Shown in pieces: positions 1,200 through 19,805 of a stretch of DNA of 64,000 nt. Where the stretch lies: NCBI GenBank assembly GCA_963664395.2, contig OY761159.2, positions 2,944,001-3,008,000 of the forward strand, given 5' to 3'. Below the pieces are notes generated by a model. It had not been told where the DNA came from. It did not search any database and saw only the letters and a program-made list of their open reading frames with translations. The stretch comes from Candidatus Binatia bacterium (GTDB lineage Bacteria > Desulfobacterota > Binatia > Bin18). The position numbers and the translations under genes are program-made. Numbering within the stretch: the first letter of the stretch is position 1; the number at the start of each line of letters is the position of its first letter.

Positions 1200-1210
1200 G
1201 AGTATTCCTT

Positions 1211-1234
1211 CCCTTCGACTAGGCTCAGGACAGG
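1211..1234. repeat. REP-like extragenic element fragment (CCCTTCGACTAGGCTCAGGACAGG)
   Basis: Resembles the widespread CCTTCGAC-AGGCTCAG REP-type motif from memory. Single copy in this window. Confidence 0.35.
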
Positions 1235-1377
1235 CCTGATGCTTGATATACGCCCGTGTGTACTCCCTTGGCAATGGTCTACGAAGGGTTGTGATTTACG
1301 GACAGACCCTGGTGGGTTACACTTAGTGACCAAGGTCAGGCCGCTTGCAGGCCGCGGGTGAATAGGAGGAATGCACT

Positions 1378-1785: not shown

Positions 1786-1861
1786 GGGCTACCGTGTTGC
1801 ACCCGGTGCGACAGAACGACACTACCGGAGGAAGCGATCACAACCGCAAGGAGGAGACCGC

Positions 1862-2209
1862 ATGGAAGACAAAGACCGTCTGGGAACCAAGCTGCAACAA
1901 AAGGAGCGGGCCGAGGAAAGCCACTACTTTGCAGAGCGCGACCGTGAGTTGATCGGCAAGCTGAAGGGGCAACGCGAGGCCGAGCACGAGGCCACGGTGC
2001 GTGAGCTGGCCCTGAACCGCTGCCCCAGGTGCGGGGTGCGGCTGACCACGCGGCTGATCGACGAGGTCGAGATCGACGAATGCGATCAGTGTCAGGGCAT
2101 GTGGCTCGACAAGGGCGAACTGGAAGCCATGTCCAAGCAGAAGGGCAGTCACTGGGTCAAGCAGTTCTTCGACGGCATGGGCCATATCCTGACCGGCCCC
2201 AAAAGCTAG
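1862..2209 (+). CDS. zf-TFIIB-type zinc-ribbon protein with charged helical N-terminus
   Basis: CPRC...EIDECDQCQGMWLDKGEL motif. AGGAGG RBS. Confidence 0.8.
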   Translation: MEDKDRLGTKLQQKERAEESHYFAERDRELIGKLKGQREAEHEATVRELALNRCPRCGVRLTTRLIDEVEIDECDQCQGMWLDKGELEAMSKQKGSHWVKQFFDGMGHILTGPKS

Positions 2210-2213
2210 CCGA

Positions 2214-5181
2214 CTAGGAGAGTCCGACGCTCACCCCTACGAACCAATACCGGCCCAGGCCGTCATACAGGCCGGGGAAGGTGTTGCCGTTGCCGGCGAA
2301 AGAGGGCCCTGCCGCGTTGCCCGCCAGCGGCGGGGCCTTGTCGAACAGGTTGTTCACGCCGACGCGCAGGCTGGTGTATTCATTGTAATTCCAGATAGCG
2401 GCCAGGTCGAAGTAGTGCCGCGCCCCGAGATCGACCTGGGTGGAGTTGAGATCTTCGACGCCGCCGATGTAGCGCCACATGAGACTGGGCCGCAGCCCCC
2501 ACGGTGTCACCCAGGTGGCGCGCAGATTGTTCCGAATATCCGGGGTCGGAAAACCGCAGGTGGCCCCCCAGTTGCCGGCGCAGTCTACCTTGCGCGCCCC
2601 TTGCAACTCCTGCTGGTCCCAGGTGGAGGTGATCGACAGGATGTCGCTGAAGCGCAGCCGCCCCCAGCGGCCCATTCCTATGACACTAAGCGGGAGGTCA
2701 TAGCCGACGGTGAGGTCGTAGCCCTGCACTTCCTCGATGGCCAGGTTGTCCAGCAGGGACACGATGCGACCGCTGTTGTCGATGTCGGAGCCCAGCCACA
2801 GGTCGCCGCTCCGCCCGCGTCTGACCTTGGCGCACTGCGAGGCGTTGCCGTCCAGACATTCGTTGAGGATGAACTCCGGCGTCAGGGTGCTGATGCCTTT
2901 GCTGATCTCGATCGAATAATAGTCCAGGCTGAGGTTGAAGCCGGGGATAAAGCCGGGCGTCCACACCAGGCCGAAGGAGTAGGTATCCGATTCCTCCGGT
3001 GCCAGGTCAGGGTTGCCGCCTTGCAGAAAATTGTACTGGGCCGCCGGGGAATTTTCGATGTTACCGAACTGGCTCGCGGTCACGCCGCTGCGGGCGCAGT
3101 CCTCAAGGCTGCGGCCCTCGGCCGTCCTGCCGTTGGCGACAGGCCCGGCACACGGGTCGGCGTTCATCTCGAACAGATTGAAGCCCTGCGGCAGGAAGCG
3201 TTCCCGCATACTCGGTCCGCGAATCGCCCGCTGGAAACTGGCCCGCAGTCTGAGGTCGGCATTAATGGCCCAGCCCGCGCGGACCCCAAAGGTATTGGTC
3301 TGCTCGCCGTAATCGTAGTCGGAATAGCGATAGCCCCCATCCAGACCGAGTTCTTCCACAAAGCGTACGCCGTCGATCAGCGGGAGGCCGGCTTCGATGA
3401 AAAACTCCGTCACGTCGGACCCGCCGCTGACGGGTTGGCTGGCGCCGCCCTGGCCGGCTCCATCGCCGCTGCGGTAGGCTTGGTCGGGTTTGAATTTGAG
3501 ATTGTCGTCGCGGTATTCGCCGCCCAAGACCACGTCCACGCCCGTAGTGGCGAATGGCGACCGGATGCCATAATCGCCGAGATGACCGGCGATATAGCCC
3601 GACACGACCGTCTGGTCGGTCGCTCCGCGGGCGGACAGGGGCAGCGTCAGGTAGTCGGTCATCTCCTGGGTCACCGCGCCCTCCCGAAAGATGTTCCAGG
3701 GGACGCAGTTCGGGTCGGAACCATCCAGCACGGAACGGCAGACAACTCGACCGGTTGCCGGGTCGTGCACCGCGTCCAGCGCCCGCCCGATGCGGGTAAT
3801 CGACAGGTCGTTCAGATAGGTGTTCCGCATGCGGACCTCGGAGTATTGGTAGTGCAGGTCGTAGCGCCAGGTATCATTAGAGGTCGCCGCGCAGACCGAA
3901 CACGCCCCGATAGGAGGTGTGGTGCAGGTCGTTTTGCCGGTTGCCGCCCTCCACATTCCGGCGGCCGATAAAGACCTGCTGGCTGTCATCTCGCGTCAAT
4001 CCATACGCGCCGCACAAGGCTTCAAACTGTTGCTGGGACAGGAATGGATTGCCGCAGCCCAGCGTATCGGTCACAAAAAACGCGCCCGAGGGGGCGATCT
4101 GGGCTACCGAGCGATTGTCCATGAACATGAACTCGGTGTAGGCCTCGACCCGGTCGTGCAGGTCGTAGTGGGCAAACAGGCCGGCGGTCCAGCGCCGGTC
4201 GGGGCGCTGGAAATAGTTCGATGGAGCGTAGTTGAACAGGGTCCCGCGGCGGGGCACGAAGCGGTCGCCCTCCACCTTATAGTCAAAGCTCTCCAGACCC
4301 CGACCTCGCAGCACGCCGAAGTCGGAAAAGGTGCCCTGCGGCTGGGTGGCCGAGCCGGAGCACTCGGTCAGGTCGTTGCTCAGGGCACACGAGCTGTAAT
4401 CGCGGTCGGCCTGGAGCACCGGGTCGATATCGCGGTAGGTGCCGTAGACCGTGACGTTACCGCGCTCCAGGTTTTTGCCCATGATCAGCGAGACATTCGA
4501 GATATCGCCGTCGGATGTTGAGCCCTTGGCGACCTCATAGCCGGCATCTTGGACAATCCGCTGCCACCTGTCGTTGCCGTTGTCGTGCTGGTATTGGCTG
4601 AACTGGTAATCCAGCTTGATGCCCTCGAAATCGTCAACCATCAGAAAGTTGACCACACCGGCGACCGCGTCGGAGCCGTAGGTGGCCGAGGAGCCGCCGG
4701 TCAGCACCTCAACGCTCTTGATCAGCGCGCCCGGAATCTGGTTGATATCGGCGCCGACTCCTCCTTGCAGCGGCGAGCCGGCCGGCAGGCGGCGGCCGTT
4801 GACCAACACCAGGGTGCGTTCCGCGCCCAGGTTGCGCAGATTCAGGGTCGCGGTGCCGGTAGCGCCGTAGGCCTGACTGGCGTTCTGGGCGGAGTACACC
4901 TGCGGCAGGGTGCGCAGCATATCCTCCACCCGGGTGGTGCCCTGGAAGGACAGGTCTTCGGCCTCAATCTGGATGACCGGGCTGGAGCTGACCAGATTTG
5001 CCCTTTGGATACGTGAGCCGGTCACGACTATCGCTTCCAACTCTGACGGCTCTTGGCGCGCTTCAGCCTCCGGCAGTGCGGCGCTCGGCTGCTCGGCATC
5101 TGCGTCCTGGGCACGGGCCGGTGCGGCAGTCAGCAGCAATGCCACCACGACCCCTTTCCATAGCAAAGTTCTTTTTGCCAT
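2214..5181 (-). pseudogene. TonB-dependent receptor, split by a +1 frameshift near 3879
   Basis: Signal peptide, TonB box (EAIVVTGSRI), plug (NLRNLG...RTLVLVNGRR, YGSDAVAGVVNF), C-terminal GRYWFVGVSVGLS. Sequence reads GAC CTC T AAT GAT ACC TGG; removing one base restores GDLNDTWRY, matching the paralogue GEIADVWRY. Confidence 0.85.
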
Positions 5182-5214
5182 GAGAACTCCTTTGTTGCCG
5201 CCCGAAGCGCCGGG

Positions 5215-8200
5215 TCAGGAGAGGCCGACACTCATGCCGACGAACCAGTAGCGGCCCAGGGCATCGTACAGGCCGGGGAAGGTGTTGCCACCTCTGCCGG
5301 CTTCACCGACGAGCGGCGGTTCCTTGTCAAACAGGTTGCGGATGCCGATACGCAGGCTGGCGTACTGGTTGACCTCCCAGATCATCGACAGGTCGAAATA
5401 GTGCCGGTCATTCACCGGGATGGGGCGATCCGGGTCGGTCTCCGTGCTGGTACTGATGTAGCGCCACATCAGGCTGGGTTGCAGCCCCCAGGGGCTCAGC
5501 CAGGTGGTCCGCATAATATTGCGGATTCTCGGGGTCGGGGTGCCGCATGAATAGCCCCAACTGCCCGCGCAGGCGATCTTCGGAATATCATCCGTTGCCT
5601 TCAGCGTATATGTATCGAGAAATGAAAGCCGGTTCGTCAAGTTGACAGAGCCGTAGCGACCAAGACTGAGCATATAGTCCACGCTGAAGTCATAGCCGCG
5701 GACGTTGGCGATGGCCAGGTTTTCCAGCACAGCCTGAACATGGCCGGTCGTCTCGATTGTGTTGGAAGACAGCCACAGGTCGCCGCCCGGCCCACGATTG
5801 ACCTTGTCGCACTGCGAGGTTTTGCCGTCCAGGCAGCGGTTCAGGACAAACTCGGGTGACAGGGCGCCGACACCACCCTTGAGTTCGATGGCGTAGTAAT
5901 CCACGCCGAAGGTGAGACCCTCAAGAAAGCCGGGCGTCCAGGTCAGGCCAAACGAATAGGTATCCGCATCTTCGGGAAGCAGGTCAGGGTTGCCGCCGAT
6001 CAGAAAGTTGTACTGACCGGCTGGTGAGTCGGGGATATTGCCGAACTGCTGGGCGGTCACCCCGCTGCGGGCGCACTCCTCAAGGGTGCGGCCGGCAGCG
6101 GTTTTACCGTCAACCACCGCGCCGGCACACGGGTCGGACGACATATAGATCAAGCCCAGCCGCTGCGGCAGGAACTGTTCCCGGATGCTCGGGGCGCGCA
6201 CCGCCCGCTGATAGCTGCCGCGCAGGCTGAGGTCGTGGTTGATGGCCCAGCCGGCCCGCACGCCGTAGGTATCGGTCTGTACGCCGTACCAGGAAGAACG
6301 ATAGCCCCCATTCAGGATCAGTTGGCGCACGAACGGAACGTCTTCGATGAGAGGAATACCGACTTCAAAGAAAACCGCTGGCACGTCGAACCCACCCTTG
6401 AGGGGCTTGGGTGCGCCGCCCACGCCGGTCCCGTCTCCGCTCTGGGTCACCCGGTCGGGCTTGTAGTTCAGATTTTCCTCGCGCCATTCACTGCCCAGCG
6501 CGATATCGAGGCCGGTGGTGGCGAACGGCGACACCAGACCGTAGCGGCCGAGATTGGCCGCGATATGGCCGGACATCACATGCTGGTTCGTGCTGCCGCG
6601 GGTCGTGCGTGTTTGTGTCAGGTAATCGGTCATGTCTTTGGTGACCGCGCCGTCCTCGAAGATGTTCCAGGCCACACAGTTCGGGTCGGCACCGCTCAGC
6701 GCCGAGCGGCAGGCGATGTCTCCGGTCGCGGGGTCGTAGACCGCATCAAGGGCGCGGTTGACCCGGCTGGCCGACATGCCGTTCACGAATTTGCTCAGCG
6801 CGCGCACCTCGGCGTATTGGTAAGACAGATTGTAGCGCCAGACATCGGCAATCTCGCCCCGCAGCCCGAACACGCCGCGATACGAGGTGTGGTGCAGATA
6901 ATCCTTGCGATTACCGCTCTCGACGCTGCGCCGGCCGATATACACATTCTGGATATCCTCTTGCGTCAAGCCGTACTGGCCACACAGGGCCTGAAACTGC
7001 TGATCGGACAGAAACGCATTGCCGCAGTGCAGATCCCTCTGCCTGAAGAACGAGCCCGAGGGAGCAATCTGGGCGGTGGTGCGGTCGTCCATGAACATCA
7101 GTTCGGTATAGGCCTCGACGTATTTGTGCAGGTCGTAATGAGCAAAGGCGCCGGCGGTCCAGCGCGTATCGGGCCGTTGAAAGTGATTCGGGGGCGCGTA
7201 GTTGTAGGGGCGACCGTCCCAGTTCGTGAACTTGTCTCCCTCGACCTGATAGAAGAACGGCGGCCCCGGATTATATCCGGGCCTGACCTTGCGGGTGCCG
7301 AAGTCGGCAAACAGGCCCTTGGGTATCGTGCCCGAGCCGATACACTCGTCAAGACCGGGTGTCAAATCGCAACTGGAGTGATCCCGGTCGCCCAGGAAAA
7401 CCTCTCCGCCGTCACGCCAAGTCGCGTAGGCGGTGATGTTGCCGCGATTGCCCAGGTTTTTGCCCAGGATGAGCGAGACGTTGGACAGCTCGCCGTCCGC
7501 GGTGGAGTCGTCGGCAACGCTATAGCCCTGGCTGGAGATCAGTTTTTTCAGGGCGCGATTGTCATTATCGTGCTGATGCTGACTGAACTGATAATCCAGC
7601 TTGATACCCTCGAAATCGTCGATCAGGATGAAGTTGATCACCCCGGCGACCGCATCCGAACCATAGGTCACCGAGGAGCCGCCGGTCAGGACATCGACGC
7701 GCTTGAGCAGCGCGCCCGGAATCTGGTTGATATCCTCGTTGCCGGTCCCCCCCCAAGGCGAGCCGGCCGGCATGCGGCGGCCGTTGATCAGCACCAGGGT
7801 GCGCGATGAGCCCAGGTGGCGCAGATTCAGGGTTGAGATCCCGCTGGCGCCGTTGGCGTTGGAGGCATCCTGACCGCCGGTAAACACCGAGGGCAGGGAG
7901 CGCACCAGCTCTTCCACCCGGACGGTCCCCTGGTGCAGCAGCTCTTCGGCATCAATGCTGACGATCGGGCCGAGCTCGACCCGGTCGGCCGCCTGCTGGA
8001 GCCGCGAACCGGTGGTCACGATCATCTCTTCCAGGGCCTCCAGTTTCTGTGGCTCTTTGTCGGCTTCGGCCTCAGGCCGTGCGCTAGCTTCGGCTTGCGG
8101 CTGTTCAGTTCCCGGCGGATCGGCGTCGGCTGCGCCGGCCGGTACGGCGGCGAAGGTGATGAGTAATGCTGTTGCTATGGCTCCGGCGAGCTTCAGCCGT

Positions 8201-8226
8201 ACCTCGGTATAGGTGATTACATTCAT
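5215..8226 (-). CDS. TonB-dependent receptor (1003 aa)
   Basis: Signal peptide, EEMIVTTGSR, plug motifs RTLVLINGRR and YGSDAVAGVINF, barrel C-terminus NLFDKEPP...GRYWFVG. Confidence 0.93.
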   Translation of the reverse strand: MNVITYTEVRLKLAGAIATALLITFAAVPAGAADADPPGTEQPQAEASARPEAEADKEPQKLEALEEMIVTTGSRLQQAADRVELGPIVSIDAEELLHQGTVRVEELVRSLPSVFTGGQDASNANGASGISTLNLRHLGSSRTLVLINGRRMPAGSPWGGTGNEDINQIPGALLKRVDVLTGGSSVTYGSDAVAGVINFILIDDFEGIKLDYQFSQHQHDNDNRALKKLISSQGYSVADDSTADGELSNVSLILGKNLGNRGNITAYATWRDGGEVFLGDRDHSSCDLTPGLDECIGSGTIPKGLFADFGTRKVRPGYNPGPPFFYQVEGDKFTNWDGRPYNYAPPNHFQRPDTRWTAGAFAHYDLHKYVEAYTELMFMDDRTTAQIAPSGSFFRQRDLHCGNAFLSDQQFQALCGQYGLTQEDIQNVYIGRRSVESGNRKDYLHHTSYRGVFGLRGEIADVWRYNLSYQYAEVRALSKFVNGMSASRVNRALDAVYDPATGDIACRSALSGADPNCVAWNIFEDGAVTKDMTDYLTQTRTTRGSTNQHVMSGHIAANLGRYGLVSPFATTGLDIALGSEWREENLNYKPDRVTQSGDGTGVGGAPKPLKGGFDVPAVFFEVGIPLIEDVPFVRQLILNGGYRSSWYGVQTDTYGVRAGWAINHDLSLRGSYQRAVRAPSIREQFLPQRLGLIYMSSDPCAGAVVDGKTAAGRTLEECARSGVTAQQFGNIPDSPAGQYNFLIGGNPDLLPEDADTYSFGLTWTPGFLEGLTFGVDYYAIELKGGVGALSPEFVLNRCLDGKTSQCDKVNRGPGGDLWLSSNTIETTGHVQAVLENLAIANVRGYDFSVDYMLSLGRYGSVNLTNRLSFLDTYTLKATDDIPKIACAGSWGYSCGTPTPRIRNIMRTTWLSPWGLQPSLMWRYISTSTETDPDRPIPVNDRHYFDLSMIWEVNQYASLRIGIRNLFDKEPPLVGEAGRGGNTFPGLYDALGRYWFVGMSVGLS

Positions 8227-8262
8227 TCACGCGCATGTAGGCCACCAATGGATATTTGTCAA

Positions 8263-9933
8263 TCACGGAGGAGGGTTCGATGAATTGAGCGCCTCCGACT
8301 TGGCAATCTTGGTGATTGCCGCATTGGAGAATTGCGCATGAAAACCCAATAATTCCCCGTCCTTACCGCACCGCGCCTCACGGCGCAGTTCGACCCAGGT
8401 CGTGAGGGCCATCCCGATGAGGACCAGGGTGAACGGGAAGCCCGCCGCGAGCGCTGCGGTCTGCAATGCCTGTAGACCGCCACCGAGCAGGAGGGCAATG
8501 GCGACCAGCCCTTCGAGCACGCACCAGAACAGGCAGCGCCCAACCGGAGCGTTGAAATTGCCGCCGGCGGTGATGGTCGCGACGACCAGCGAGCCGGAGT
8601 CCGATGAGGTGACGAAGAAGATGACGATCAGGACGAGAGCGACGACCGAAAGCGGACCTGTCAGCGGCAGGGGTTCGAGCATTTTGAACAGCGCCAACTC
8701 CGGTGTCCAGGCGGTCACGGTATCGATCACGCCGGTGTAGCCGTCGGTGAGATATTGGTGGACGGCGGTCCCGCCAAAAGCACTCATCCACAACAAACCG
8801 AACAGCGTCGGCAGGAGGAGGACGCACAATAGGAACTCGCGGACTGTCCGGCCCCTGGAAATGCGGGCGATGAAAATACCGACGAACGGTGCCCAGGCCA
8901 GCCACCAGGCCAGGTAGAAGGTGGTCCAGTCGTGCAGGAAGGCGGTGTCCTGTCGGCCGACCCAGTTGCTGAGCGGCACAATTTCGGTCAGGTAGGTGCC
9001 CAGCCCGCTGAAGAAACCGGCCCAGATATAGAGGGTCGGTCCGATCCCGATAATGCACACCAGCAGCCCCACCGCCAGAATCGCGTTCAACTCGCTGAGA
9101 CGCTTGATGCCGACATTGATCCCGGTCAGCACCGAGCCTGTCGCCACGGCGGTGATCAGCACAATGAGCACCACCCTGGTGAGGTCGGTGGCCGGAATCC
9201 CGAACAGATAATTGAGACCGCCCGTCACCTGATTGGCACCCAGGCCGAGCGAGGTAGCAAGCCCGAACACGGTCGTAAAGACGGCCAGCGTATCAATCAG
9301 GTGGCCGGCCCAGCCCCAGATGCGGTCACCGAGCAGGGGATAGAAGGCCGAGCGAATAGTGAGCGGCAGGCCCCGGTTATAGCTGAAGAAGGCCAGGGCG
9401 AGGCCCACAAGCGCGTAGATGGCCCAACCGTGCAGACCCCAGTGAAAAGTCGCCGCGGCGATGCCGAGGGCGCGAGCCGTCTCGGGGTCGGCGGCATTAA
9501 TACCGAGCGGGGGATGCAGAAAGTGTTGGACCGGCTCCAGCACCCCGAAGAACATCAGCCCAATGCCTATGCCGGCGGCAAAGAGCATCGCCAACCAACT
9601 GACAGAGGAGTACTCCGGGACGGCCTCTCGTCCGCCGAGCCGCACCTTGCCGAGCGGGGAGACAGCCAGACACAGGCAGAACAGCAGGACAAAGTTGGCG
9701 GTGAGCAGGAACAGCCAGTCGAACTGAGTGGTGAGCCAGATCCGAATACCCCCAAAGACCAGTGTCGCTCTTTCCGGGAACAGCAGCGTGCCGAGGACAA
9801 AGACGATGATGGTGAGTGCGGAAACCGGGAAGACCGCCTTGTCGATATCCGGACCCGATATCCGGGTATTGCTCCGCCCGCTCCCGTAGCCGGGTCCGTC
9901 GTCCTGCCGCGCGTGTTGGTCCACTTGGCTCAT
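8263..9933 (-). CDS. BCCT family (betaine/carnitine/choline) transporter
   Basis: Signature motifs SWLAMLFAAGIGIG, FHWGLHGWAIY, WWLAWAPFVGIFIARISRGRT, FFVTSSDSG. Confidence 0.95.
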   Translation of the reverse strand: MSQVDQHARQDDGPGYGSGRSNTRISGPDIDKAVFPVSALTIIVFVLGTLLFPERATLVFGGIRIWLTTQFDWLFLLTANFVLLFCLCLAVSPLGKVRLGGREAVPEYSSVSWLAMLFAAGIGIGLMFFGVLEPVQHFLHPPLGINAADPETARALGIAAATFHWGLHGWAIYALVGLALAFFSYNRGLPLTIRSAFYPLLGDRIWGWAGHLIDTLAVFTTVFGLATSLGLGANQVTGGLNYLFGIPATDLTRVVLIVLITAVATGSVLTGINVGIKRLSELNAILAVGLLVCIIGIGPTLYIWAGFFSGLGTYLTEIVPLSNWVGRQDTAFLHDWTTFYLAWWLAWAPFVGIFIARISRGRTVREFLLCVLLLPTLFGLLWMSAFGGTAVHQYLTDGYTGVIDTVTAWTPELALFKMLEPLPLTGPLSVVALVLIVIFFVTSSDSGSLVVATITAGGNFNAPVGRCLFWCVLEGLVAIALLLGGGLQALQTAALAAGFPFTLVLIGMALTTWVELRREARCGKDGELLGFHAQFSNAAITKIAKSEALNSSNPPP

Positions 9934-10010
9934 GCCTTCCTCCCCCCGCTACGGATTTGGCGCTCAGATTGTAACTCTTCAGACGGCGCATTGATATGCG
10001 CAGGGCGGAA

Positions 10011-10080
10011 GAGGCTTGTCACGGCAGGAGGCGCAGGCCGATATACACCAGGGTGAAGACCGTCAGAAAGACGATTCCAG
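10011..10080 (-). repeat. Direct repeat copy 1: orphan 3' end of the Nramp-like transporter gene
   Basis: 59/70 nt identical to 13993-14062 by manual alignment. Encodes GIVFLTVFTLVYIGLRLLP-stop. Confidence 0.88.
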
Positions 10081-10086
10081 TGTCAG

Positions 10087-10517
10087 GTTGTGGATTGCGG
10101 ACAGACCTTGGTGAGTTACACTCGCCTGCTCTGCGTCCGATATCTCCCCGTCGTTGTGGATTGCGGACAGACCTTGGTGAGTTACACTGTTCAGCGCCCG
10201 CACCTTACACCGGCAGTTGTTGTGGATTGCGGACAGACCTTGGTGAGTTACACTACTCGTACAGGAGATAGCGACCAGCCACGGGTTGTGGATTGCGGAC
10301 AGACCTTGGTGAGTTACACTGCCTGACCGCGCACACCGGCACGTCTGAATGTTGTGGATTGCGGACAGACCTTGGTGAGTTACACTAGGAAACCATACGA
10401 GGCTGAGCGAATCCCGTTGTGGATTGCGGACAGACCTTGGTGAGTTACACTTATCGAAGAAACGATGAACGCACGCGCTGCGTTGTGGATTGCGGACAGT
10501 CCTTGGTGAGTTACACT
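10087..10517 (+). CRISPR. Type II-C CRISPR array, 7 repeats of 36 bp, 6 spacers of 29-30 bp
   Basis: Repeat GTTGTGGATTGCGGACAGACCTTGGTGAGTTACACT starts at 10087, 10153, 10219, 10285, 10351, 10416 and 10482 (last has one substitution). Orientation inferred from the GTTG start and tracrRNA complementarity. Confidence 0.98.
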
Positions 10518-10567
10518 GTCCCCGACGCAACCTGCTGGAATCGTGGCGATTTCGCCCTCCAGATTGA

Positions 10568-10703
10568 TTACAAAAGTTCAATCCGGAGGGGCGCGGGCTC
10601 AGGAGGCTTGCGCTTTTTCCCATAGAAAACCTGGATTCTGCCAAACTGTTTGTCGGTAATCTTGATAAGCTGCCTCACTGATATCAACGCTTCGCTTAAT
10701 CAT
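10568..10703 (-). pseudogene. cas1/cas2 deletion scar (cas1 N-terminus fused to cas2 C-terminus)
   Basis: ATG overlapping the cas9 3' end gives MIKRSVDISEAAY (II-C Cas1-like start). Another frame gives LIKITDKQFGRIQVFYGKKRKPPEPAPLRIELL-stop (II-C Cas2-like end). Confidence 0.8.
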
Positions 10704-13700
10704 TTCGCAACTTCCCGATGGCATTCACAAGATGTTTTTTCATCGCGTAATCGTGCATCAACGGCGATACGGCCTTCTCCAGTTGTTCTGCACTATTCTT
10801 CCCAGCCGCTACAGTGTGGTGTTGGAGCCCAACTCTACTATTGGTGTACTCAAGTTTTTGGACTCGGTAGAACTGCCTCTCACCGTCTACTTCAACGCTG
10901 ACCAAGTCGTTGATATGTAACGCCATCACGAATTCATACGCTTCGCCGTGGTCGGTCTGAATGACCGGACGTTTCGAGCCGTTGATCCCTCTGGCGCGGT
11001 GGGCGGCTTCCATCGCGGTGACAAATCTCCCTTCATACTTTCCGGTTGCTTGGTGACGGATAATTTCGGCATGATGTGTATTGCCATACGCCATCCACCT
11101 GAACACCTTCCCCTGACGGTCACGTACCCCGAACTTGGTTTTTTTCAGGGTGTCCAAATCGAGGACTTTTAACTGCCGGACCCGGACCCTCTTGATGGGA
11201 GTCGTACCATTCTTGTGAACGACCCTCTTGTCGTCTGCGAAAGCCTGTTTTGGATCATTATCATGGTTCTCCAGATGCGCTCGGACCTGCTGCCGGACCA
11301 CGGGATCGATAATTTTGTCAACCCACGTGACCTTGAAATCCGTATTCAGGACTTGGCGATAGACTGTTCCCGGTCCGTCAACACCGTTGCCCGCGATGAA
11401 CCCGACTCCCGTTTCTTCGTGTAATGCGCCGCTGATCTTCCGTTGCGGGACGTGAGAGACAATCAGCGCTTGGAGTTGGTTGTGCACATCCTGCCTGAAG
11501 GTTTGCCACGGAATATCTATGCGTATATCTCGCAGATTGAGTTCCGAGTGGGAACGTTCGAGTTGCTTGGCCCGCCTCGCCAAACGCTGATGAAAGCCAC
11601 GGTCAATGCAGGCGATGACAGCAGCATCAATGGCGTGGTGGCGATGGTCTGTCCGTTCCTTCTCAGCGCTCGTGCCTATCAGGCTGTTCAAGCCCCATTG
11701 ACGACGGAGCCAACCGGTGAATGCCGCCTTGGGAAACGTGACATCAACTCCCAGGGCGCTCAGATAACGGCCTGCTTCCCGACTGATATAGCGAGTGTCG
11801 GTAAGCTGACTGCCGATAAAGTCTCTGTTTTGTAGCTCGGCTTCTTTCTTGTAGAAACGCTCCCGCTTGGACTTGAGGCTCTTGCCCCAACGACTGATGG
11901 TCTGGGTAATCTGATTCCACTTGTCCCCATTGCTACCGAAGGCGTCCATAGGCGTGCGATTGCGTTTGTCGCGGTTTTCCTCCGTATAGCAAACGACCTT
12001 GTTCATATAGGAGTCGTCCAGCGTCAGGCTGTAAGGCAGGATGTGGTCAATCTCAACCGCTGGCCCGAACAGTTCGGATAAAATGATCTGCCTTCCGCTG
12101 TAGGCGCACTTCTCTTCCTGGTCTTTCCACAGGCGATATTTCAGCTTGTCGCTTCGACTCGGATTTTCGGACAAGCCGAGATGTGCGTTTTTCTGGCGCA
12201 TCTCGGCGTACTTCTGAGCGGCTTCCTCATTGGCCTTGGTGTTCGCATTTTGCTGTTTGCGGAAGGCGGCATATCGCTTGGTATTCATCTCCAGATCGCG
12301 GGCCATTTCAATGCGAACCGCGTCCGGCTTGCCGTACTCGGCAATAACGGCATTCACCACCCGGCGTAGTTCGTGCAATCCTTTTTGCACTATGGGATTG
12401 GCTATTGTTGGCGGCGGGCCAAGACGGTCTTGCGCTGTGATGGATTCTGGTTCGTACCCGTAGCCCACTTCAACACGGGCATCAGAGAGAATTTTTCCCT
12501 GTTCCAGGTAGGGCAGCAGCTTGCGAACAGCTTTGGTCGAAAAATTGCCGTGACCCGGCTCGAACTCCACCATGCAGAGACGTACCGCAGTTGTGGAATC
12601 AAACTGCCAGTGACCTATAAGTCGCTTTTTCAATACGGATTTTTTCTGGATAGTCAGTAGGTCTTCCGCGAGAGCATATTGTTTGTCCCCGGAAAATGCG
12701 TCCCATTCGGGCAGTACCTTACGTATCGCGCAGGCGGTCGTGTTGCCTTTGAGCTTTTTGACTTCGGATCTTTCCAGGTTGAACTCGGTCGTCCGAGCCA
12801 GCCCAAGAGCTTTACGCAATCTGGCAAAAGTGAGCACCGGCGTGTTCTCAAACAGTGTGGCCAAGAGAGCACGGTCTTCATCGCTGAGCGTGCTCCAGGT
12901 TTCTGTATACGAATCAAAGAATTGGAGATTGTTGATGTCCTGGAGGTAACGGAACTTCTGATATTCCAAACGGGCAATTCTCGCTCGTGTGCATCGTGGC
13001 TCTAAGGAACATTTCCCTACTCGGTCATCCTGAAGCTTGAGCGGACGCTGATGGAAAATAATCTGCTCTATTTGTTCCTTTACCGTATCCGTCAACACCG
13101 TGTGGTGCTTTTTCTGTTCCTCCCAAATGGCGTCCAACTCCTCCCGGTACATTTGCCGGTCGGTCCGCAGATGTCCTCCGTCTCGCTGCCGGTTACGCTT
13201 GCTTTGAAGAGGCTCCAGCGAAGAGAGATATTCACCCAGGGTGCGACAACCGGATTTTTTGATCTTTTCTCGCAGATCACTGGTGTCTTTTTTGAACGCA
13301 GTCTCTTCTTTTTCTTCGTCCGTAATGTCGGTCTTGCCATCGGCATTGTCCTCGTCCAACTCGGCCAGAACTGCCTGCACGTCCGGGTCGTCCAACATCT
13401 CCTGACCCAGCAGCGTTTTACGGTTGCTGAGAAACCCCCGTCGTTGCACGAGGTGGAGAAGAACGCGCCCGAGTTCGTGTACACTCAGGGGGGAATCCAG
13501 CGCTTTGGCGCGGAGGGAGTACGGCTCTCCAAGCTCATTCAGAACGCTCTCCGGTTTCGGATGGTCTTTGAGACTGGTCGGCAGCAGATTCAGACTGACC
13601 AAGTAGTTCAGCATCCGTTGGCGGCGTCTGGCGCGTCGCTGCACTACGCGTCTTGCTAATCGGCTGTTACGACGCTTTTGATTCTTAGGCGTTGGTGTCT

Positions 13701-13836
13701 TATCTTCGACGGCTTTATTGAATATGCGCGAGCCGAGATCAATTAACCCGGTTGGTTTCCCAGCGTCGGTTGTTTTGAGGAGCGCCCAGCCTATGGAATT
13801 TGATCCTAAATCCAGTCCCAGAATGTGCTTGCTCAC
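10696..13836 (-). CDS. cas9: Type II-C CRISPR endonuclease Cas9 (1046 aa)
   Basis: RuvC-I ILGLDLGSNSIGWA, Arg-rich bridge helix, RuvC-II IEMARD, HNH EIDHILPYS...N...N, RuvC-III HHAIDA. Confidence 0.98.
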   Translation of the reverse strand: MSKHILGLDLGSNSIGWALLKTTDAGKPTGLIDLGSRIFNKAVEDKTPTPKNQKRRNSRLARRVVQRRARRRQRMLNYLVSLNLLPTSLKDHPKPESVLNELGEPYSLRAKALDSPLSVHELGRVLLHLVQRRGFLSNRKTLLGQEMLDDPDVQAVLAELDEDNADGKTDITDEEKEETAFKKDTSDLREKIKKSGCRTLGEYLSSLEPLQSKRNRQRDGGHLRTDRQMYREELDAIWEEQKKHHTVLTDTVKEQIEQIIFHQRPLKLQDDRVGKCSLEPRCTRARIARLEYQKFRYLQDINNLQFFDSYTETWSTLSDEDRALLATLFENTPVLTFARLRKALGLARTTEFNLERSEVKKLKGNTTACAIRKVLPEWDAFSGDKQYALAEDLLTIQKKSVLKKRLIGHWQFDSTTAVRLCMVEFEPGHGNFSTKAVRKLLPYLEQGKILSDARVEVGYGYEPESITAQDRLGPPPTIANPIVQKGLHELRRVVNAVIAEYGKPDAVRIEMARDLEMNTKRYAAFRKQQNANTKANEEAAQKYAEMRQKNAHLGLSENPSRSDKLKYRLWKDQEEKCAYSGRQIILSELFGPAVEIDHILPYSLTLDDSYMNKVVCYTEENRDKRNRTPMDAFGSNGDKWNQITQTISRWGKSLKSKRERFYKKEAELQNRDFIGSQLTDTRYISREAGRYLSALGVDVTFPKAAFTGWLRRQWGLNSLIGTSAEKERTDHRHHAIDAAVIACIDRGFHQRLARRAKQLERSHSELNLRDIRIDIPWQTFRQDVHNQLQALIVSHVPQRKISGALHEETGVGFIAGNGVDGPGTVYRQVLNTDFKVTWVDKIIDPVVRQQVRAHLENHDNDPKQAFADDKRVVHKNGTTPIKRVRVRQLKVLDLDTLKKTKFGVRDRQGKVFRWMAYGNTHHAEIIRHQATGKYEGRFVTAMEAAHRARGINGSKRPVIQTDHGEAYEFVMALHINDLVSVEVDGERQFYRVQKLEYTNSRVGLQHHTVAAGKNSAEQLEKAVSPLMHDYAMKKHLVNAIGKLRND

Positions 13837-13864
13837 GTATCGTCTCCCGTGTATATTCCTCGGC

Positions 13865-13970
13865 AGTGTAACTCACCAAGGCCTGTCGTCAGCTCTTCAT
13901 ACCAAAGAAGTTGTTTCTTCGCAGGCAACGCTTTCAAGCGACCAGAGCCCTCCCAGTGGGGGCTTTTTTT
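13865..13970 (+). ncRNA. tracrRNA
   Basis: AGTGTAACTCACCAAGGCCTGTC is a 22/23 match to the reverse complement of the repeat. It is followed by hairpins and a GC stem plus T7 terminator (13946-13970). Ends approximate. Confidence 0.88.
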
Positions 13971-13992
13971 ATTCTCTATGGTTGTCGGCGGT

Positions 13993-14062
13993 GACGCTTG
14001 TTACGGCACCAGCCGTATGCCGATATACACCAGGGTAAAGACCGTCAAAAAGACGATACCGG
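13993..14062 (-). repeat. Direct repeat copy 2: actual 3' end of the Nramp-like gene
   Basis: Aligned with 10011-10080; shared 18-bp identical core GCCGATATACACCAGGGT. Confidence 0.88.
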
Positions 14063-15311
14063 CCCAACTCAGCAGCCGCAGCCAGGGCGGAGGGTGGGCG
14101 GCGGCTGGCACATGGGGGCTGAGGACGAGCCGATGGTTGGCCAGGGCAATAATCGGCGCGACCAGAAATGAGATAACGGTGGCCAGGTCGATGAGCGTGG
14201 TAAAGCTGGTGAGAAACAGCGCAATAATCAGATAGCCGCCAACCGCGCCAATGACGAGCCAGACGTTATACACTGTGCGGCTGTCCTGTCCGTCCTGGCT
14301 CCGAGAAAACAATAATGCCCAGGTGCGGTCCATGGCCCTGGCATAGCCGTCAAAGATGACCAGGGCGGTGCCAAACATGACGGAAAAGGCCGAAGAGGCG
14401 ATGATGATATAGCTCCAGTCCCCGAGCGTTGCGGTGTAGAGCCGAATCACCTCATGCGTGAACTGTGTCCCGCTCTGGTTTGAGAATGACTGCCCGGAAC
14501 CGTACATGATGAACGCCCCCAGCGTCATGAAGCAGACGGCCAGAAACGCCGTCATCACATACGCGACATTAAAGTCGAGCAGCGTCTCGCGCAGGGTCGG
14601 CCGGTAGCCGGTCTGCTTGAAGCGTTCAAGCGTCCAGAGGCTGTTGAGGGCGGATAAATCCAAGGGAGCCGGCATCCAGCCCATGAGGGCAATCAGAAAG
14701 GCAAAGCCCGAGGCGGTCCAGACCTCGGACGAGTAGAAGGCCACCGGCGCGGTCGGACCGCGCAAGAGGGTCAGAACAAAAGCGGTCAGGGTGGAGAGAA
14801 ACAGTACTGTACAAATGACCTTGATGAGGCGGTCCAGGGTGCTGTATTTTCCGACCAGCAAAATGCTGACGCAGCCGACGATCAGGAACAGGGCGGTGTG
14901 GATAACCGGCAGGTCGAGGCCGAGCAGGTTGTTCAGCAGTCCGGCGGTGGTAAAACAGATGGCCGCGATAATAATGGACATCGGGCTGACCGTAATAAAC
15001 AAATAGAGATATAAGGCCCAGTTCCCGAAACGCTTATAGCCATCGATCAGGCTTTCGCCGGTCGCGTTCGCATAGCGCGAGCCGTACTCAAAGGACGGAT
15101 ATTTCAGGAGATTGGCAAGAATAACCGCCCACAGCAGCGCATAGCCATAGTCGGCCCCGGCGCGGGTTGACTGCACTAAATGTGAGACGCCAATGGCGGT
15201 GCTGGCAAAGAGCAGGCCCGGCCCCAGGGTTTTGAGCAGGCGGGAGCGCTGGCTGTCTTCTTCTTTCGGGGCGGTTGTCTCCATAGGAGCAGTCGCTTGT
15301 GTGTTTTCCAT
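14001..15311 (-). CDS. Nramp-related (APC superfamily) transporter
   Basis: LGPGLLFASTAIGVSHLVQSTRAGADYG, ALMGWMPAP, about 11 hydrophobic segments. Start taken at MENTQ. Confidence 0.85.
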   Translation of the reverse strand: MENTQATAPMETTAPKEEDSQRSRLLKTLGPGLLFASTAIGVSHLVQSTRAGADYGYALLWAVILANLLKYPSFEYGSRYANATGESLIDGYKRFGNWALYLYLFITVSPMSIIIAAICFTTAGLLNNLLGLDLPVIHTALFLIVGCVSILLVGKYSTLDRLIKVICTVLFLSTLTAFVLTLLRGPTAPVAFYSSEVWTASGFAFLIALMGWMPAPLDLSALNSLWTLERFKQTGYRPTLRETLLDFNVAYVMTAFLAVCFMTLGAFIMYGSGQSFSNQSGTQFTHEVIRLYTATLGDWSYIIIASSAFSVMFGTALVIFDGYARAMDRTWALLFSRSQDGQDSRTVYNVWLVIGAVGGYLIIALFLTSFTTLIDLATVISFLVAPIIALANHRLVLSPHVPAAAHPPPWLRLLSWAGIVFLTVFTLVYIGIRLVP

Positions 15312-15491
15312 ACAAAGCCTGGTATGACAATTGTGTGACTGAGGGTTGCAGCAGAGAAACATGACTCTTTCTTGTGTGTCAAGAAGAAGTGGTTGGACTG
15401 CGCTGCCCTTGAGAGGAGAGTTTCCTATGGAAGAGGGGGCTTCCTTTACGGGAACGCCTTTGCGCATAGCAACCCGATAATCGAGCGCCGC

Positions 15492-16877
15492 ATGGATCTT
15501 TCCGCTATCCTCCAAACGATTCCTCACTATCAGGAGTTCCTGACCCTGGAAGAACTGCGTCAAAGTTCCGTCCAACTCGTTGAAGAATTCCCGAACATTG
15601 CTCAACTCGAAAAAATTGGGATATCCACTGACGGACGTCCGATTGAGTTGTTAACCATCGGCTCTGGAACCCGGCACGCGCTTTTCCTTGGAGTGCCGCA
15701 TCCCAACGAACCTATTGGGACGCTGAGTCTGGAATTCCTGAGTCGTTTACTGTGCGAGCAGGACGACCTCAGAGCAGAGCTTGACTACACTTTCCTCATT
15801 GTCAAAGCCATTGATCCCGATGGCTTGGTCCTCAACGAAGGCTGGTTGAAGGGAGAGTTCTCTCCGCTTCAGTATGCCCTCAACTACTACCGCTGCACGG
15901 CCCGGGAACAAGTTGAGTGGGGCTTTCCGATTGACTATAAGACGCTGCATTTTTCCTCGCCATCTGCCGAAACCCAGGTGGTTATGCGGCTGATGCAGGC
16001 GTATCGGCCCCGTTTTTGTCACTCGCTGCATAACGCAAGTTTTTGTGGTGTCTATTTTTACGCCACCCGGAATTGCCCGGAACTGTTCACTCAGTTTCAC
16101 GAACTCGTCGCCGGCCAGGGCCTCCCGCTGCATCACGGTGAACCAGAGGTGCCGTATATCCAACCCTGGACACAGGCCGTGTATCCATTCTTCGGAGTAC
16201 GCGAAGGCTATGACTTCATGGCGCAGCATCTGGACGAAGACCCTGCGCTCTCCATCACGACGGGGACGAGTTCAGCCGATTATTTGAAACAGTACGTCCC
16301 GCAGGCATTGTCGCTCGTGTGCGAACTGCCGTACTTCACCGACCCGGCTATTGCAGATGTCTTGCCGGCAGGTATGTCGCGTCGTGCAGCGCTGCTTGAG
16401 GGACTCCGGCAGGTCGAAGAAATCGTCCAGCTTATTGAAACGCACGTGTCCGCTTTGCAGGCCGGGCTTCCTTCCTCGCGGCTCTCCCGGTCTGTTGCCG
16501 ACTACCTCGACCGAACCCCCAAACGCCTGGCGGCACAGCGGAGACAGCTCGAAGAGATCACGGCATATGCTGAAGAAGCAACCTGTGCGCAGGCCTTTGA
16601 CGCACTCGTCTGCAAGACCTTGCCGCCAACGCTCTATCTGGGCGAAGTATACCGTTTGGCGAAAGAGGGCGGCGAAGAGGGGAGAGCCGCAGAGATTCGT
16701 GGCCACATCGAACAGCAGATCGAACAACTCACGGCCAAGAGCACTCTTCAAGTCCTGCCATTAAAAAAGCTGGTTGCGGTACAAGTTGGAAGTGGGCTAC
16801 TGGCCATGCTACGGAGAGAGACAGAGGCGGACTCAACTGGGCGCATGTCCGAAAAGGGAGGGGAGCCATGGCAGTAG
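15492..16877 (+). CDS. M14 family zinc carboxypeptidase
   Basis: IG-x-S-x-x-GRPI, HPNE zinc motif, DPDG, SLHN. Confidence 0.85.
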   Translation: MDLSAILQTIPHYQEFLTLEELRQSSVQLVEEFPNIAQLEKIGISTDGRPIELLTIGSGTRHALFLGVPHPNEPIGTLSLEFLSRLLCEQDDLRAELDYTFLIVKAIDPDGLVLNEGWLKGEFSPLQYALNYYRCTAREQVEWGFPIDYKTLHFSSPSAETQVVMRLMQAYRPRFCHSLHNASFCGVYFYATRNCPELFTQFHELVAGQGLPLHHGEPEVPYIQPWTQAVYPFFGVREGYDFMAQHLDEDPALSITTGTSSADYLKQYVPQALSLVCELPYFTDPAIADVLPAGMSRRAALLEGLRQVEEIVQLIETHVSALQAGLPSSRLSRSVADYLDRTPKRLAAQRRQLEEITAYAEEATCAQAFDALVCKTLPPTLYLGEVYRLAKEGGEEGRAAEIRGHIEQQIEQLTAKSTLQVLPLKKLVAVQVGSGLLAMLRRETEADSTGRMSEKGGEPWQ

Positions 16878-18001
16878 AGAGCAGCCAATACGCAGACGGA
16901 ATGCGGCAGGCTGAGAAAAGACTCCTGGACTTCCTGCGTATAATGGAAGCCCACCTCGAAGGGCTCCATCTTAATCGACTGGCCGAACAGAATGCCCGGT
17001 TAAAAGAAAGACTCGGGGAGACGCTCGAAGCGCTACGGGCAGACCTGGCGCTCTCTTCTCCACCGGAACAGCTGCAAGAGTTCCATACGAAGTTTAGCAA
17101 AGCGGTGCAGCACTGTGCTGATGCCTATGCATTTCTGTTGCATTTTATCAGCCAGGAGTTTGCGATGGATTTCTTGAAAGGGCGGTATGAGTTCTGCCGG
17201 GGAAAATATCTCTTGTATGAACTGCGCGCCGGGTTGCCCATCCTCCAACAATACTGGGTTTTTCCGGATGTCTTGGCAGCTCTTCCAGCTTTGGAAATAC
17301 AGGAGCCCGACCTGGACGTCCCGGTGGGTATTATACGCAAAGAACGGCAGGAGCAGCGTTCAGCCTATTCTCTATATGTGCCTGAGCATTACACGCCGTA
17401 CAAAGAATGGCCGCTCATTGTCTGTCTCCACAGCGGCTATAGTCGGGAAGACGATTACCTGCTGACATGGCTGCGGGCCGCAAAGAGCAAGGGCTATATG
17501 CTGCTTGCCCCGAAGTCAGTTCGGGAAACCTGGTCGGCTATTCGTTTGCCCGGCATTCCTCCAGAGCCCATTCTGGACCGTCGTTCCATCCGCGCGATGC
17601 TGGAGGAGGTCTGGAATACCTATGCGGTGGACCGTCGGCGCATATATCTCACCGGGTTCTCTGACGGTGGGATTTTTACCTATGTTCTGGGGCTGGCGTA
17701 TGCGGATATTTTTGCCGGTATTGCCCCGGTGGCCGGGCGGATTCATCCTGCGATCAATCATCTACTGAATCGCGGTCAAGGCAAAGACCTGCCCATCTTC
17801 ATCGTGCATGGCGAACAAGACCCGATCTTTGCCGTTGATGTCACCCGACAGACACATACCGGGCTGACAAAGCTGGGCTATAACGTGACCTATACGGAGC
17901 TGCCGGATTGGGGCCACGCCTATCCGTACTCAATCAACGAGACGCTGGTGCTGCCGTGGTTCGAGGGCCTGGGGGCAAAGCAACTACTTGGTTCGGCGTG
18001 A
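16868..18001 (+). CDS. alpha/beta hydrolase (esterase/phospholipase-like)
   Basis: YVP...WPLIVCLH, nucleophile GFSDGG, HGEQD, GH. Confidence 0.85.
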   Translation: MAVESSQYADGMRQAEKRLLDFLRIMEAHLEGLHLNRLAEQNARLKERLGETLEALRADLALSSPPEQLQEFHTKFSKAVQHCADAYAFLLHFISQEFAMDFLKGRYEFCRGKYLLYELRAGLPILQQYWVFPDVLAALPALEIQEPDLDVPVGIIRKERQEQRSAYSLYVPEHYTPYKEWPLIVCLHSGYSREDDYLLTWLRAAKSKGYMLLAPKSVRETWSAIRLPGIPPEPILDRRSIRAMLEEVWNTYAVDRRRIYLTGFSDGGIFTYVLGLAYADIFAGIAPVAGRIHPAINHLLNRGQGKDLPIFIVHGEQDPIFAVDVTRQTHTGLTKLGYNVTYTELPDWGHAYPYSINETLVLPWFEGLGAKQLLGSA

Positions 18002-18070
18002 GGCATCAAGGGCGTAATAGGCCAGGACGCCGGCAAACGCCAGGGAAACAATGGAGACAATAATATCCAT
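17984..18070 (-). CDS. Putative 28-aa single-helix membrane peptide
   Basis: GGGAG RBS, then MDIIVSIVSLAFAGVLAYYALDASRRTK. Follows the permease in the same direction. Confidence 0.5.
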   Translation of the reverse strand: MDIIVSIVSLAFAGVLAYYALDASRRTK

Positions 18071-18102
18071 GTTACAACTCCCGTAAGCTTTCGATCCGGG
18101 TA

Positions 18103-18618
18103 TCAATTTTGCCCGCCCCAGCGTGAAAAGATATGAAACAAGCGCTGGCCGACGATGCCGATAATTGGCGGCAATAAAATACTCGGAAGGGCGCGCGCGG
18201 CGGTAAACGGCCAGCCCAGAAACGGGATTTCCCAGGTAAACATCCGGGTTGGGGAGAGGAGGGTTTTTGCGGTAATAAAGGCCAAGAGGGGGCCGACGGC
18301 GACCCCTTGCTTCAGTAACGAAGCCGCGATTGGAAAAACCACATAGGGACCCCCTGGCATCACCAAGCCGATAAGCCACCCGAGTAAGATTCCCTTGATG
18401 CCGGACTGTTCTCCCATCCACTGGACCAGGGTTTCTCGCGGCAGGAGGACGTTAAAAAATCCGGCAAAGCAGCATCCCAAGAGTAACGGCAACCAGACTT
18501 CCTGGAGGAGGCTGAAAGCCGACTGCACACCCTTGAGGGAAAGATCCGGGCTTTTGGTAAAGGCGATAATAGCCAGTACCAGGGTGAGGCCGCCCATAAT
18601 GAGAACGCCGGCGTTCAT
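18103..18618 (-). CDS. Permease, ArsP/DUF318-like half
   Basis: WMGEQSGIKGILLG...PGGPYVVFPIAASL motif, hydrophobic. Start uncertain (18618 or 18693). Confidence 0.75.
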   Translation of the reverse strand: MNAGVLIMGGLTLVLAIIAFTKSPDLSLKGVQSAFSLLQEVWLPLLLGCCFAGFFNVLLPRETLVQWMGEQSGIKGILLGWLIGLVMPGGPYVVFPIAASLLKQGVAVGPLLAFITAKTLLSPTRMFTWEIPFLGWPFTAARALPSILLPPIIGIVGQRLFHIFSRWGGQN

Positions 18619-18707
18619 ACGCTTCTTTCCTTTTTGTCCCTGAGGCGGCCCTTTCCCGGCTGGGCCGGTCGTATGCGTTGGTGTGTCACTCATGCATGTT
18701 GGAGACA

Positions 18708-19805
18708 TTAAGCCGAGAGTCGCCGGCTGGTATGCAGGTCGCGATACACGAGGGTGGTAGTTTCCTTGGGAGATTCTTGGGCCGCCTTGACGACGATGTC
18801 GTGCTGCGGTGAGAGGCCACACACCGGATCAGCCGCCGCTGCATCGCCAGTCAGCAGAAACGCCTGACACCGACAGCCGCCAAAATCAACGGCTCTTTGG
18901 GCGCAACTCCGACACGGCTCCTGCATCCAGTCTTCGCCCCGATAGGCATTGAGCGCTGGTGAGTCCTGCCAGATCTCAGTCAGCGACTTGTCTTTTACGC
19001 TCTCGAAGGTGAGGTGAGAAATCGCGTGTGCCGCATGGCAGGGTAAGACGACTCCAGTGGGAGTGATGACCATATAGCTGCGTGCCCACCCACCTGAGCA
19101 GGCCTTGGGCCGGTCGCCAAAATAGTCGATTTTGACAAAGACGATTTCCATCGTGCCCCGATAGCGCGTGCGGGCCTCACGGGCGAGCTGCTCTGCTTGG
19201 TCGTACTGCTCTCGGGTCGGCATGAGCGCGCTACGGTTCTCCAACGCCCAGGCGTAGTACTGCGTATTGGCCAGTTCGAGCCGCTGGGCTCCAAGCTCTG
19301 CGGCCTGCCTGATAATCTCTGACACGCGCTCAATATTGAGACGATGCAGGGTGATATTAATCGTGAGAGGAAAATCCAGTTTCCGAATCGATTCCGCACT
19401 GGCTAATTTCTTATCGTACGCGGGCATGCCGGCAATCAGGTCTGCGGTGCGCTGATCGGTGTCCTGTATGCTTAACTGGATATGTTCGAGTCCGGCAGTC
19501 TTCAGTTCCTTGAGCCGGTCTTCGTCCAGCAGGGTGCCGCCTGTTATCAAGTTCGTGTACAGGTCGCACGCCTGGGCATGCTGTACCAGGGGGAGAATAT
19601 CTTTACGAACCAGGGGTTCACCGCCAGAGAGGTGGAGTTGGACCACGCCGAGATCTGCAGCCTCCGTAAACGTCTGACACCACTGCTCGGTGCTGAGCTC
19701 ATCCAGCATGGCGTGGAAATCTACCGGATTAGAGCAATACACACATTTGAGAGGACAACGGTAGGAGAGTTCGGCAACGACAGTGTAGGGACGCGGCGTG
19801 TTCAT
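18708..19805 (-). CDS. pqqE: PQQ biosynthesis radical SAM protein
   Basis: AELSYRCPLKCVYCSNP, LELANTQYYAWA, SPASM DFGGCRCQAF. Confidence 0.97.
   Translation of the reverse strand: MNTPRPYTVVAELSYRCPLKCVYCSNPVDFHAMLDELSTEQWCQTFTEAADLGVVQLHLSGGEPLVRKDILPLVQHAQACDLYTNLITGGTLLDEDRLKELKTAGLEHIQLSIQDTDQRTADLIAGMPAYDKKLASAESIRKLDFPLTINITLHRLNIERVSEIIRQAAELGAQRLELANTQYYAWALENRSALMPTREQYDQAEQLAREARTRYRGTMEIVFVKIDYFGDRPKACSGGWARSYMVITPTGVVLPCHAAHAISHLTFESVKDKSLTEIWQDSPALNAYRGEDWMQEPCRSCAQRAVDFGGCRCQAFLLTGDAAAADPVCGLSPQHDIVVKAAQESPKETTTLVYRDLHTSRRLSA

Follow-up and report, generated by a model that had tools for sequence, protein, structure and literature searches.

How did a type II-C CRISPR-Cas9 locus come to lie between two copies of the end of a transporter gene? 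The locus is found in a stretch of 64,000 nucleotides from Candidatus Binatia bacterium (assembly GCA_963664395.2, contig OY761159.2, positions 2,944,001 to 3,008,000), here called the window, whose numbering is used throughout. A CRISPR array, a stump of cas2, cas9 and a predicted tracrRNA are bracketed by the gene-attached tail (T) of an Nramp-like transporter gene (N) and by a second, orphan copy of this tail (T'), which is followed by a BCCT transporter gene and two TonB-dependent receptor genes. A reading made from the sequence only had proposed that the CRISPR locus arrived as a discrete module. The comparison of the source genome (G000) with its relatives points instead to the other flank: the Cas9 locus appears to be an old resident, and T' is, with a probability slightly above one half (about 0.55), the ragged end of an imported block whose junction with a truncated spacer was illegitimate, within a flexible island driven by recombination.

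Tail duplication and its junctions

A repeat search of positions 9000-15000 returned a single direct repeat, 10011-10078 versus 13993-14060, with 58 of 68 positions identical. Extended by 2 bases (10011-10080 versus 13993-14062), the copies are 59/70 identical, which confirms the duplicated gene end described in the sequence-only reading. A whole-genome search found these two copies only, the second with an E-value of 1.5e-15. The Nramp-like open reading frame (ORF) truly ends in the right copy, with GIVFLTVFTLVYIGIRLVP and the stop codon, and a conserved 3' flank of about 25 nt (13976-13992) adjoins it. The left copy reads GIVFLTVFTLVYIGLRLLP and the stop codon, and continues without a break into the usual Nramp-to-BCCT spacer, like that of the relatives G001 and G006.

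On the array side the order is repeat, 8 unrelated nucleotides and tail from codon -19, with a possible microhomology of 2-3 nt at most. The first CRISPR repeat begins 6-8 nt past the left tail copy, in line with the close spacing that had been noticed earlier. The 8-nt junction may be the stump of a truncated spacer.

The arrangement is also present in independent data. Run X9 yielded a Logan contig of 5673 nt that spans 9316-10086 and 10416-15317 with 2 mismatches and bridges both junctions; the array is its sole collapsed part, by 329 nt, and its depth is even, being 7 over the Cas9 locus and 6.4 over BCCT. The source sample may be that of run X9. Run X2, labelled as a sponge metagenome, contains related pieces that are 95-99% identical.

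Table 1. Features of the Nramp-like gene, the Cas9 locus and the adjoining block (window positions).
Feature	Position	Strand	Remarks
Degenerate CRISPR repeat	1288..1323	-	Flanked by the CBS and CoA-transferase genes; ~8.8 kb from the array
Two TonB-dependent receptor genes	2214..8226	-	With BCCT and T' form a block of other-clade ancestry, roughly 8 kb
BCCT betaine/choline-type transporter gene	8263..9933	-	3' end of 'x' type, no tail copy following
Orphan tail copy T'	10011..10080	-	Begins at codon -19 of the Nramp-like gene
Array-side junction	10079..10086		8 nt without homology to repeat or tail
CRISPR array	10087..10517	+	Seven 36-nt repeats and six unique spacers (29-30 nt); plus-strand crRNA, convergent with cas9
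cas2 3' stump	10568..10672	-	Last 34 codons; 30/34 residues identical to the C-terminal end of a relative's Cas2
cas9, type II-C	10696..13836	-	Intact, 1046 amino acids, HNH and RuvC domains
Predicted tracrRNA	13865..13972	+	5' anti-repeat, hairpins, intrinsic terminator; diverges from cas9
Gene-attached tail copy T	13993..14062	-	Last 19-20 codons, stop codon and ~8 nt
Nramp-like transporter gene N	14001..15311	-	Likely start MENTQ...; longest ORF to 15605; conserved in 27/27 same-genus genomes

Age and ancestry of the CRISPR locus

Around 8 kb downstream of N were taken from 27 genomes of the same genus and one of the same family, giving 28 loci, the gene content of which was classed by tblastn. 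The junction of N, tail, flank and tracrRNA is common to G000 and three of these loci (G021, G022 and G027), which represent three other species of the genus. From N through tail, flank and tracrRNA to cas9, G000 is collinear with G022 (86% identity over 4.7 kb) and with G027 (84.5%). In G021 the part from N to the tracrRNA, tail and flank included, is retained at 94% identity and is followed by a deletion that begins inside the anti-repeat; the ~60 nt at its joint gave no match to anything.

The cas9 genes of G000 and G022 are 84.0% identical, the background between these genomes being 85.3-86.5%, and none of the 28 genomes is incongruently close to G000 in cas9. A dN/dS of 0.19-0.22 against the two orthologues, in G022 and G027, indicates that cas9 is under purifying selection, and no spacer is common to any of the five arrays compared. 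A divergence equal to the between-clade background, the low dN/dS and the unshared spacers together fit vertical descent of a working effector.

Fossils of the locus are found in relatives that have no cas9. An array lies directly before the first TonB receptor gene (TonB1) in G001, a lone repeat is present there in G002 and G012, and a tracrRNA remnant and an array remnant are seen in G016 and G007, respectively. The degenerate repeat of Table 1 occupies the orthologous place in all five genomes examined (G000, G006, G012, G021 and G022), and no such repeat was found in the more distant genus members (loci L052-L060). It is a fossil of the old array end. The shared junction, the fossils and the terminal repeat thus place the CRISPR locus in the subclade's ancestor, and the 'empty' sites would be secondary losses. 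The position of the terminal repeat further implies that the interval between it and the array received a Zn-ribbon ORF, CBS, the two TonB receptor genes and BCCT by insertion.

Foreign ancestry of the BCCT/TonB block

Identities were compared over 84 kb around the site in G006, G012, G021 and G022, with three stretches taken as background. In these stretches G021 is the closest to G000 (90.7-91.5%), and G006, G012 and G022 (86.2-87.0%, 86.1-87.4% and 85.3-86.5% to G000) represent another clade; G006 and G012 are 90.1-93.5% identical to each other. The order is different in the block. Over the TonB receptors (2200-8250) the values are 93.9% for G000-G006, 92.0% for G000-G012 and 92.7% for G006-G012, and over BCCT (8263-9933) they are 93.7%, 93.7% and 94.7%, correspondingly. 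Both regions are absent in G021 and G022, while cas9 is absent in G021, G006 and G012. By identity, G000 therefore falls inside the G006/G012 clade in the block, at within-clade distance, and the 93.9% to G006 against a background of 86-87% is the discordance of ancestry that marks a block imported by recombination.

The alignment of G000 with G006 is unbroken from ~1289 to 10078, which is the 5' end of T', so T' belongs to the block of foreign ancestry. Divergence of the block from G006 is ~6%, versus ~9% for the G000/G021 split, and by this measure the block is younger than the split. Its far transition is diffuse, informative sites being mixed from about -3200 to 2400.

The arrival of the CRISPR locus as a discrete module is thus not supported, on four counts: its junction is present in G021, G022 and G027, cas9 diverges as the background does, fossils remain in 'empty' relatives, and it is the BCCT/TonB side that is foreign. 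Among the origins offered with that proposal, the third, homology-facilitated recombination with a diverged allele, comes near the mechanism favoured here; what lacks support is the CRISPR locus as the part that arrived.

The site in relatives

BCCT lies directly after N, or within ~0.9 kb of it, in 12 of the 28 loci, so the empty site at which the transporter is directly followed by BCCT, suggested as a check in the sequence-only reading, does exist. BCCT is truncated in G001 and degraded in G019, Cas9 follows N in two loci (G022 and G027, with ~80% protein identity), and neither gene is found in the remaining 12/28. As to which allele fits the empty site, T' together with its downstream DNA is 95% identical over 133 nt to the empty-site allele of G001.

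Orphan tails recur in relatives, with other cargo. In 8 of the 12 N-BCCT genomes they follow the BCCT stop codon immediately and start at codon -23; in G007 one follows a 1.45-kb cargo and starts at codon -27; and metagenome contigs carry them behind other DNA, with one 5' limit at about codon -25. A look for other cargo at the site was among the checks named in the sequence-only reading, and G007, BCCT and the metagenome contigs provide such cargo. The 5' limits at codons -19, -23, -27 and about -25 differ, and the 3' breakpoints past the stop codon are scattered over ~35 nt, unlike the precise, identical ends of an att-flanked element. A scan of JGI metagenomes with the tail pattern gave 2 loci, of which L084 is the informative one, with the order N, tail, BCCT, tail, permease ... 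PQQ, tracrRNA and cas9. Both cassette orders therefore occur, BCCT being proximal and Cas9 distal in L084 and in the G016 remnant.

Two relatives carry defence-like cargo at the same site. In G014 (L051, 5951-7945) it consists of an IIGP-type GTPase and a Schlafen/AlbA_2 protein, and in G002 (L049, 3286-7001) of a large N6 methylase and an FRG-domain protein.

Recombinases and N as a possible anchor

The earlier observation that no integrase lies nearby holds over a wider range. A search of the 28 genomes for tyrosine recombinases (PF00589) placed none in the island among the matches listed; most genomes have three conserved tyrosine recombinases only, and the nearest Xer-like gene is ~40-60 kb away. 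Pfam scans detected no recombinase family in 88 ORFs downstream of N in 12 relatives or in 12 window ORFs within 1-19805, a result obtained with no separate genome-wide search for serine recombinases or transposases. A recombinase at the site, as an att-flanked element would have it, was thus absent from the PF00589 matches listed and from the ORFs scanned.

N itself behaves unusually. Its identity between clades is 92-96% (14001-15100) versus ~86% for the surrounding genome, with a star-like pattern of private changes, and its dS (0.18-0.25) does not reach half the value for cas9 (0.29-0.56). Such values suggest that N was homogenised recently across species, and the low dS and the star-like pattern fit frequent use of N as a recombination anchor. 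The 10 sites at which the tail copies differ show no clade pattern, the copies being too short to give the direction of the event.

Contigs that skip the locus, 10008>13996 in runs X12 and X2 and 10012>13987 in X12, represent other alleles or species and not products of the two G000 copies: the empty-site joints in X12 and X2 are of a different allele, with TGACG between the two sides. No excision product of G000 was seen among the contigs, which are contig-level data only; the array bin had no contig cover in X12, X1 and X2, and uncovered parts are uninformative. ComEC and DprA are present in G000, but also in 10-11 of 14 control genomes, and are likewise uninformative.

The favoured explanation

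These observations are best accommodated if the Cas9 locus is an old, vertically inherited resident adjoining N, and if the region downstream of N is a flexible island that co-occurring relatives reshuffle through recombination at conserved flanks. In the G000 lineage a block from a species of the other clade, comprising the last 19 codons of the donor N, BCCT and the two TonB receptors, would have been spliced in behind the array. Its far end would have entered by homologous recombination near the CBS and CoA-transferase genes, where the informative sites turn mixed. The near end, lying 57 nt inside the donor N, would have carried too little N homology to recombine and might have been joined illegitimately to the truncated spacer. 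T' would then be a junction scar and not an att site. Fragments with longer N homology would recombine within N and replace the Cas9 locus, yielding the common N-BCCT configuration, which would account for the shortness of orphan tails. Direct observation covers the anatomy, the shared junction, the CRISPR fossils, the foreign ancestry of the block and the absence of an integrase among the matches listed; which way the event ran, how the illegitimate joining took place and by what route the DNA entered are what we infer.

Several points weigh against this explanation. Capture of the CRISPR segment into an N-BCCT site would give the same structure, so the direction is not proved, and since N is homogenised across clades it cannot tell which flank is native. 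The far breakpoint is not sharp. The 5' limits of four independent orphan tails cluster within 24 nt, for which an att-like core would also account. Mosaics are common over the 84 kb compared, and a later homologous replacement of an older block is compatible with the data. Finally, the read evidence consists of contigs only.

If the favoured explanation is correct, a Cas9 locus that is flanked by repeats and has no integrase need not be mobile, and apparent att sites may be scars of import at a recombination hot spot. The history of the island can be read from its CRISPR fossils, which makes it an example of island turnover among co-occurring species.

Alternative explanations

The first alternative is the reverse event, in which an N-BCCT lineage regained the CRISPR segment, from codon -19 of the tail to the broken spacer, from a relative and with no dedicated recombinase. 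A circularised fragment could have entered through one RecA-type crossover within the 68 nt of tail homology; alternatively, recombination could have been anchored in N and combined with an illegitimate join. A single crossover in the tail predicts this very layout, the second copy then being followed by the recipient's own downstream DNA, and the match of T' and its spacer to the G001 empty-site allele agrees with this. The existence of both cassette orders and the cross-clade gene flow in N, which shows that N does act as an anchor, are in its favour as well. However, the tail-tracrRNA junction is present in G021 too, which would put the insertion before the G000/G021 split of ~9%, and with the BCCT/TonB block only ~6% from G006 an extra replacement event would be needed, though mosaics are frequent in this region; the lack of incongruent closeness of G000 cas9 to other genomes also speaks against it. 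The reverse event is possible, though doubtful.

A second alternative makes the last ~20-27 codons of N an integrase-free docking site for short cassettes, such as BCCT, the Cas9 locus and others. Circles excised by tail-by-tail recombination would move among co-resident symbionts of different species and would be inserted again through one crossover within ~60-100 nt of tail homology, amounting to an integron-like exchange by general recombination only. The clustering of four tail limits within 24 nt fits this scheme, which is improbable as a whole; if true, it would provide an integrase-free route by which working units of Cas9, tracrRNA and array spread among co-resident bacteria.

The tail might also be a true att site, with Cas9, BCCT and other small cargos as integrase-less cassettes that a recombinase encoded elsewhere mobilises in trans, much as for cis-mobilisable elements or satellites that carry cargo only. 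Tail copies enclose at least three different cargos, and a fourth is seen in metagenome contigs; the 5' limits cluster in codons -27 to -19, the copies always run through the stop codon, and both cassette orders exist. Against these stand the 28 genomes with no integrase at the locus among the matches listed, the three conserved tyrosine recombinases of most of them, the differing 5' limits and scattered 3' breakpoints, the array-side junction inside a broken spacer, the congruence of cas9 divergence with the genomes, and contigs that hold no G000 excision product, those with the empty site in X12 and X2 being of a different allele. An att site is quite unlikely on this balance.

A chimera of two co-occurring species in the 14-contig assembly, with its 5.4% contamination and many related species in the same samples, is, like erosion of a second transporter paralogue, very improbable: the X9 contig bridges both junctions at even depth (a contig-level observation), the junction holds no shared sequence able to mislead an assembler, and the paralogue is rejected, there being none at this place in the 28 relatives' loci, where the sole second matches to the N C-terminus are short tails. 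These were the two outcomes that the sequence-only reading had set against itself, and neither was found.

The Cas9 locus and neighbouring genes

The Cas9 protein is matched by TIGR01865 (E-value 6.4e-200) and by the Pfam families HNH_4, RuvC_III and Cas9_a. The anti-repeat of the predicted tracrRNA spans 13862-13887 and its terminator 13944-13966 on the plus strand, which is also the strand of the crRNA. The anti-repeat is complementary to the array repeat over 22/23 nt, and cofolding of the two yields a full, bulged duplex (-44.2 kcal/mol); a like geometry is seen in the outgroup locus L065. The tracrRNA is nearly invariant among G000, G021, G022 and G027.

Relative to G022, cas1 and the rest of cas2 are gone via a deletion of ~1.09 kb. 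Type II-C loci have a cas1-cas2 adaptation module and neither csn2 nor cas4; in G000 this module is represented by the 34-codon cas2 stump only; by sequence the effector part is type II-C and the adaptation part is lost. In G022, Cas1 and Cas2 are the sole cas families that Pfam finds among the ORFs beside cas9. Here (L047, 3493-4744) cas1 appears to be broken into two frames, with cas9 intact (1044 amino acids). In G027 (L040, 4931-5242) cas1 is lost and part of cas2 is kept, with an intact cas9 of 1050 amino acids. Adaptation genes have decayed independently in G027 and probably in G022. Three species would thus have retained type II-C Cas9 and tracrRNA by purifying selection, with independent decay of the adaptation genes.

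A scan of IMG/VR for exact matches to three of the six spacers gave no hits. Past the last repeat (10517, the end of the array nearest the cas2 stump), two contigs of run X12 carry another 30-nt sequence, which is probably an extra spacer; related strains may have longer cas-proximal arrays.

In the block, the distal TonB receptor gene of G000 is split into overlapping frames (2214-3989 and 3877-5181, minus strand). It is one ORF of 986-1005 amino acids in seven relatives (G006, G008, G004, G023, G026, G005 and G025), and the split is either a frameshift or an assembly indel.

Other patches of G000 are also nearer to the G006/G012 clade than to G021, one at ~44000-50000 and one ~12-14 kb before the window start (contig G000:C1, locus L066). 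Such further patches imply that recombination mosaics are common beyond the Cas9 locus. An element of ~25-40 nt around 1211-1237 (within ~1206-1251) recurs at many loci of G000 and its relatives, with some copies 100% identical, and looks like a REP-type dispersed repeat.

Comparison with known systems

Type II-C loci of the Neisseria meningitidis type have a Cas9 of ~1050 amino acids, a tracrRNA beside cas9, 36-nt repeats and a crRNA convergent with cas9. The G000 locus is alike in Cas9 size, in the placement of the tracrRNA, in repeat length and in the convergent crRNA, as well as in the full-length bulged duplex. It is unlike them in having no cas1 and in lacking most of cas2.

Integrative elements restore the 3' end of their target gene, leaving attL and attR, and these include integrase-less CIME-like elements and cargo-only satellites. 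As in such elements, direct repeats of a gene 3' end bracket cargo here, and several cargos occur at one gene. The site differs from them in that no integrase was found there in the 28 genomes among the matches listed, the limits are variable, a broken spacer holds one of the junctions, and cargo and host are phylogenetically congruent.

Homology-facilitated illegitimate recombination, reportedly described by de Vries and Wackernagel in 2002, would have one homologous anchor and one non-homologous join in common with the present case, which does show a block of discordant ancestry. Here, by contrast, the foreign end includes a little of the conserved flank gene, left behind as an orphan tail. 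Flexible genomic islands driven by recombination are a known phenomenon, and the island downstream of N resembles them in its conserved flanks with raised similarity across species.

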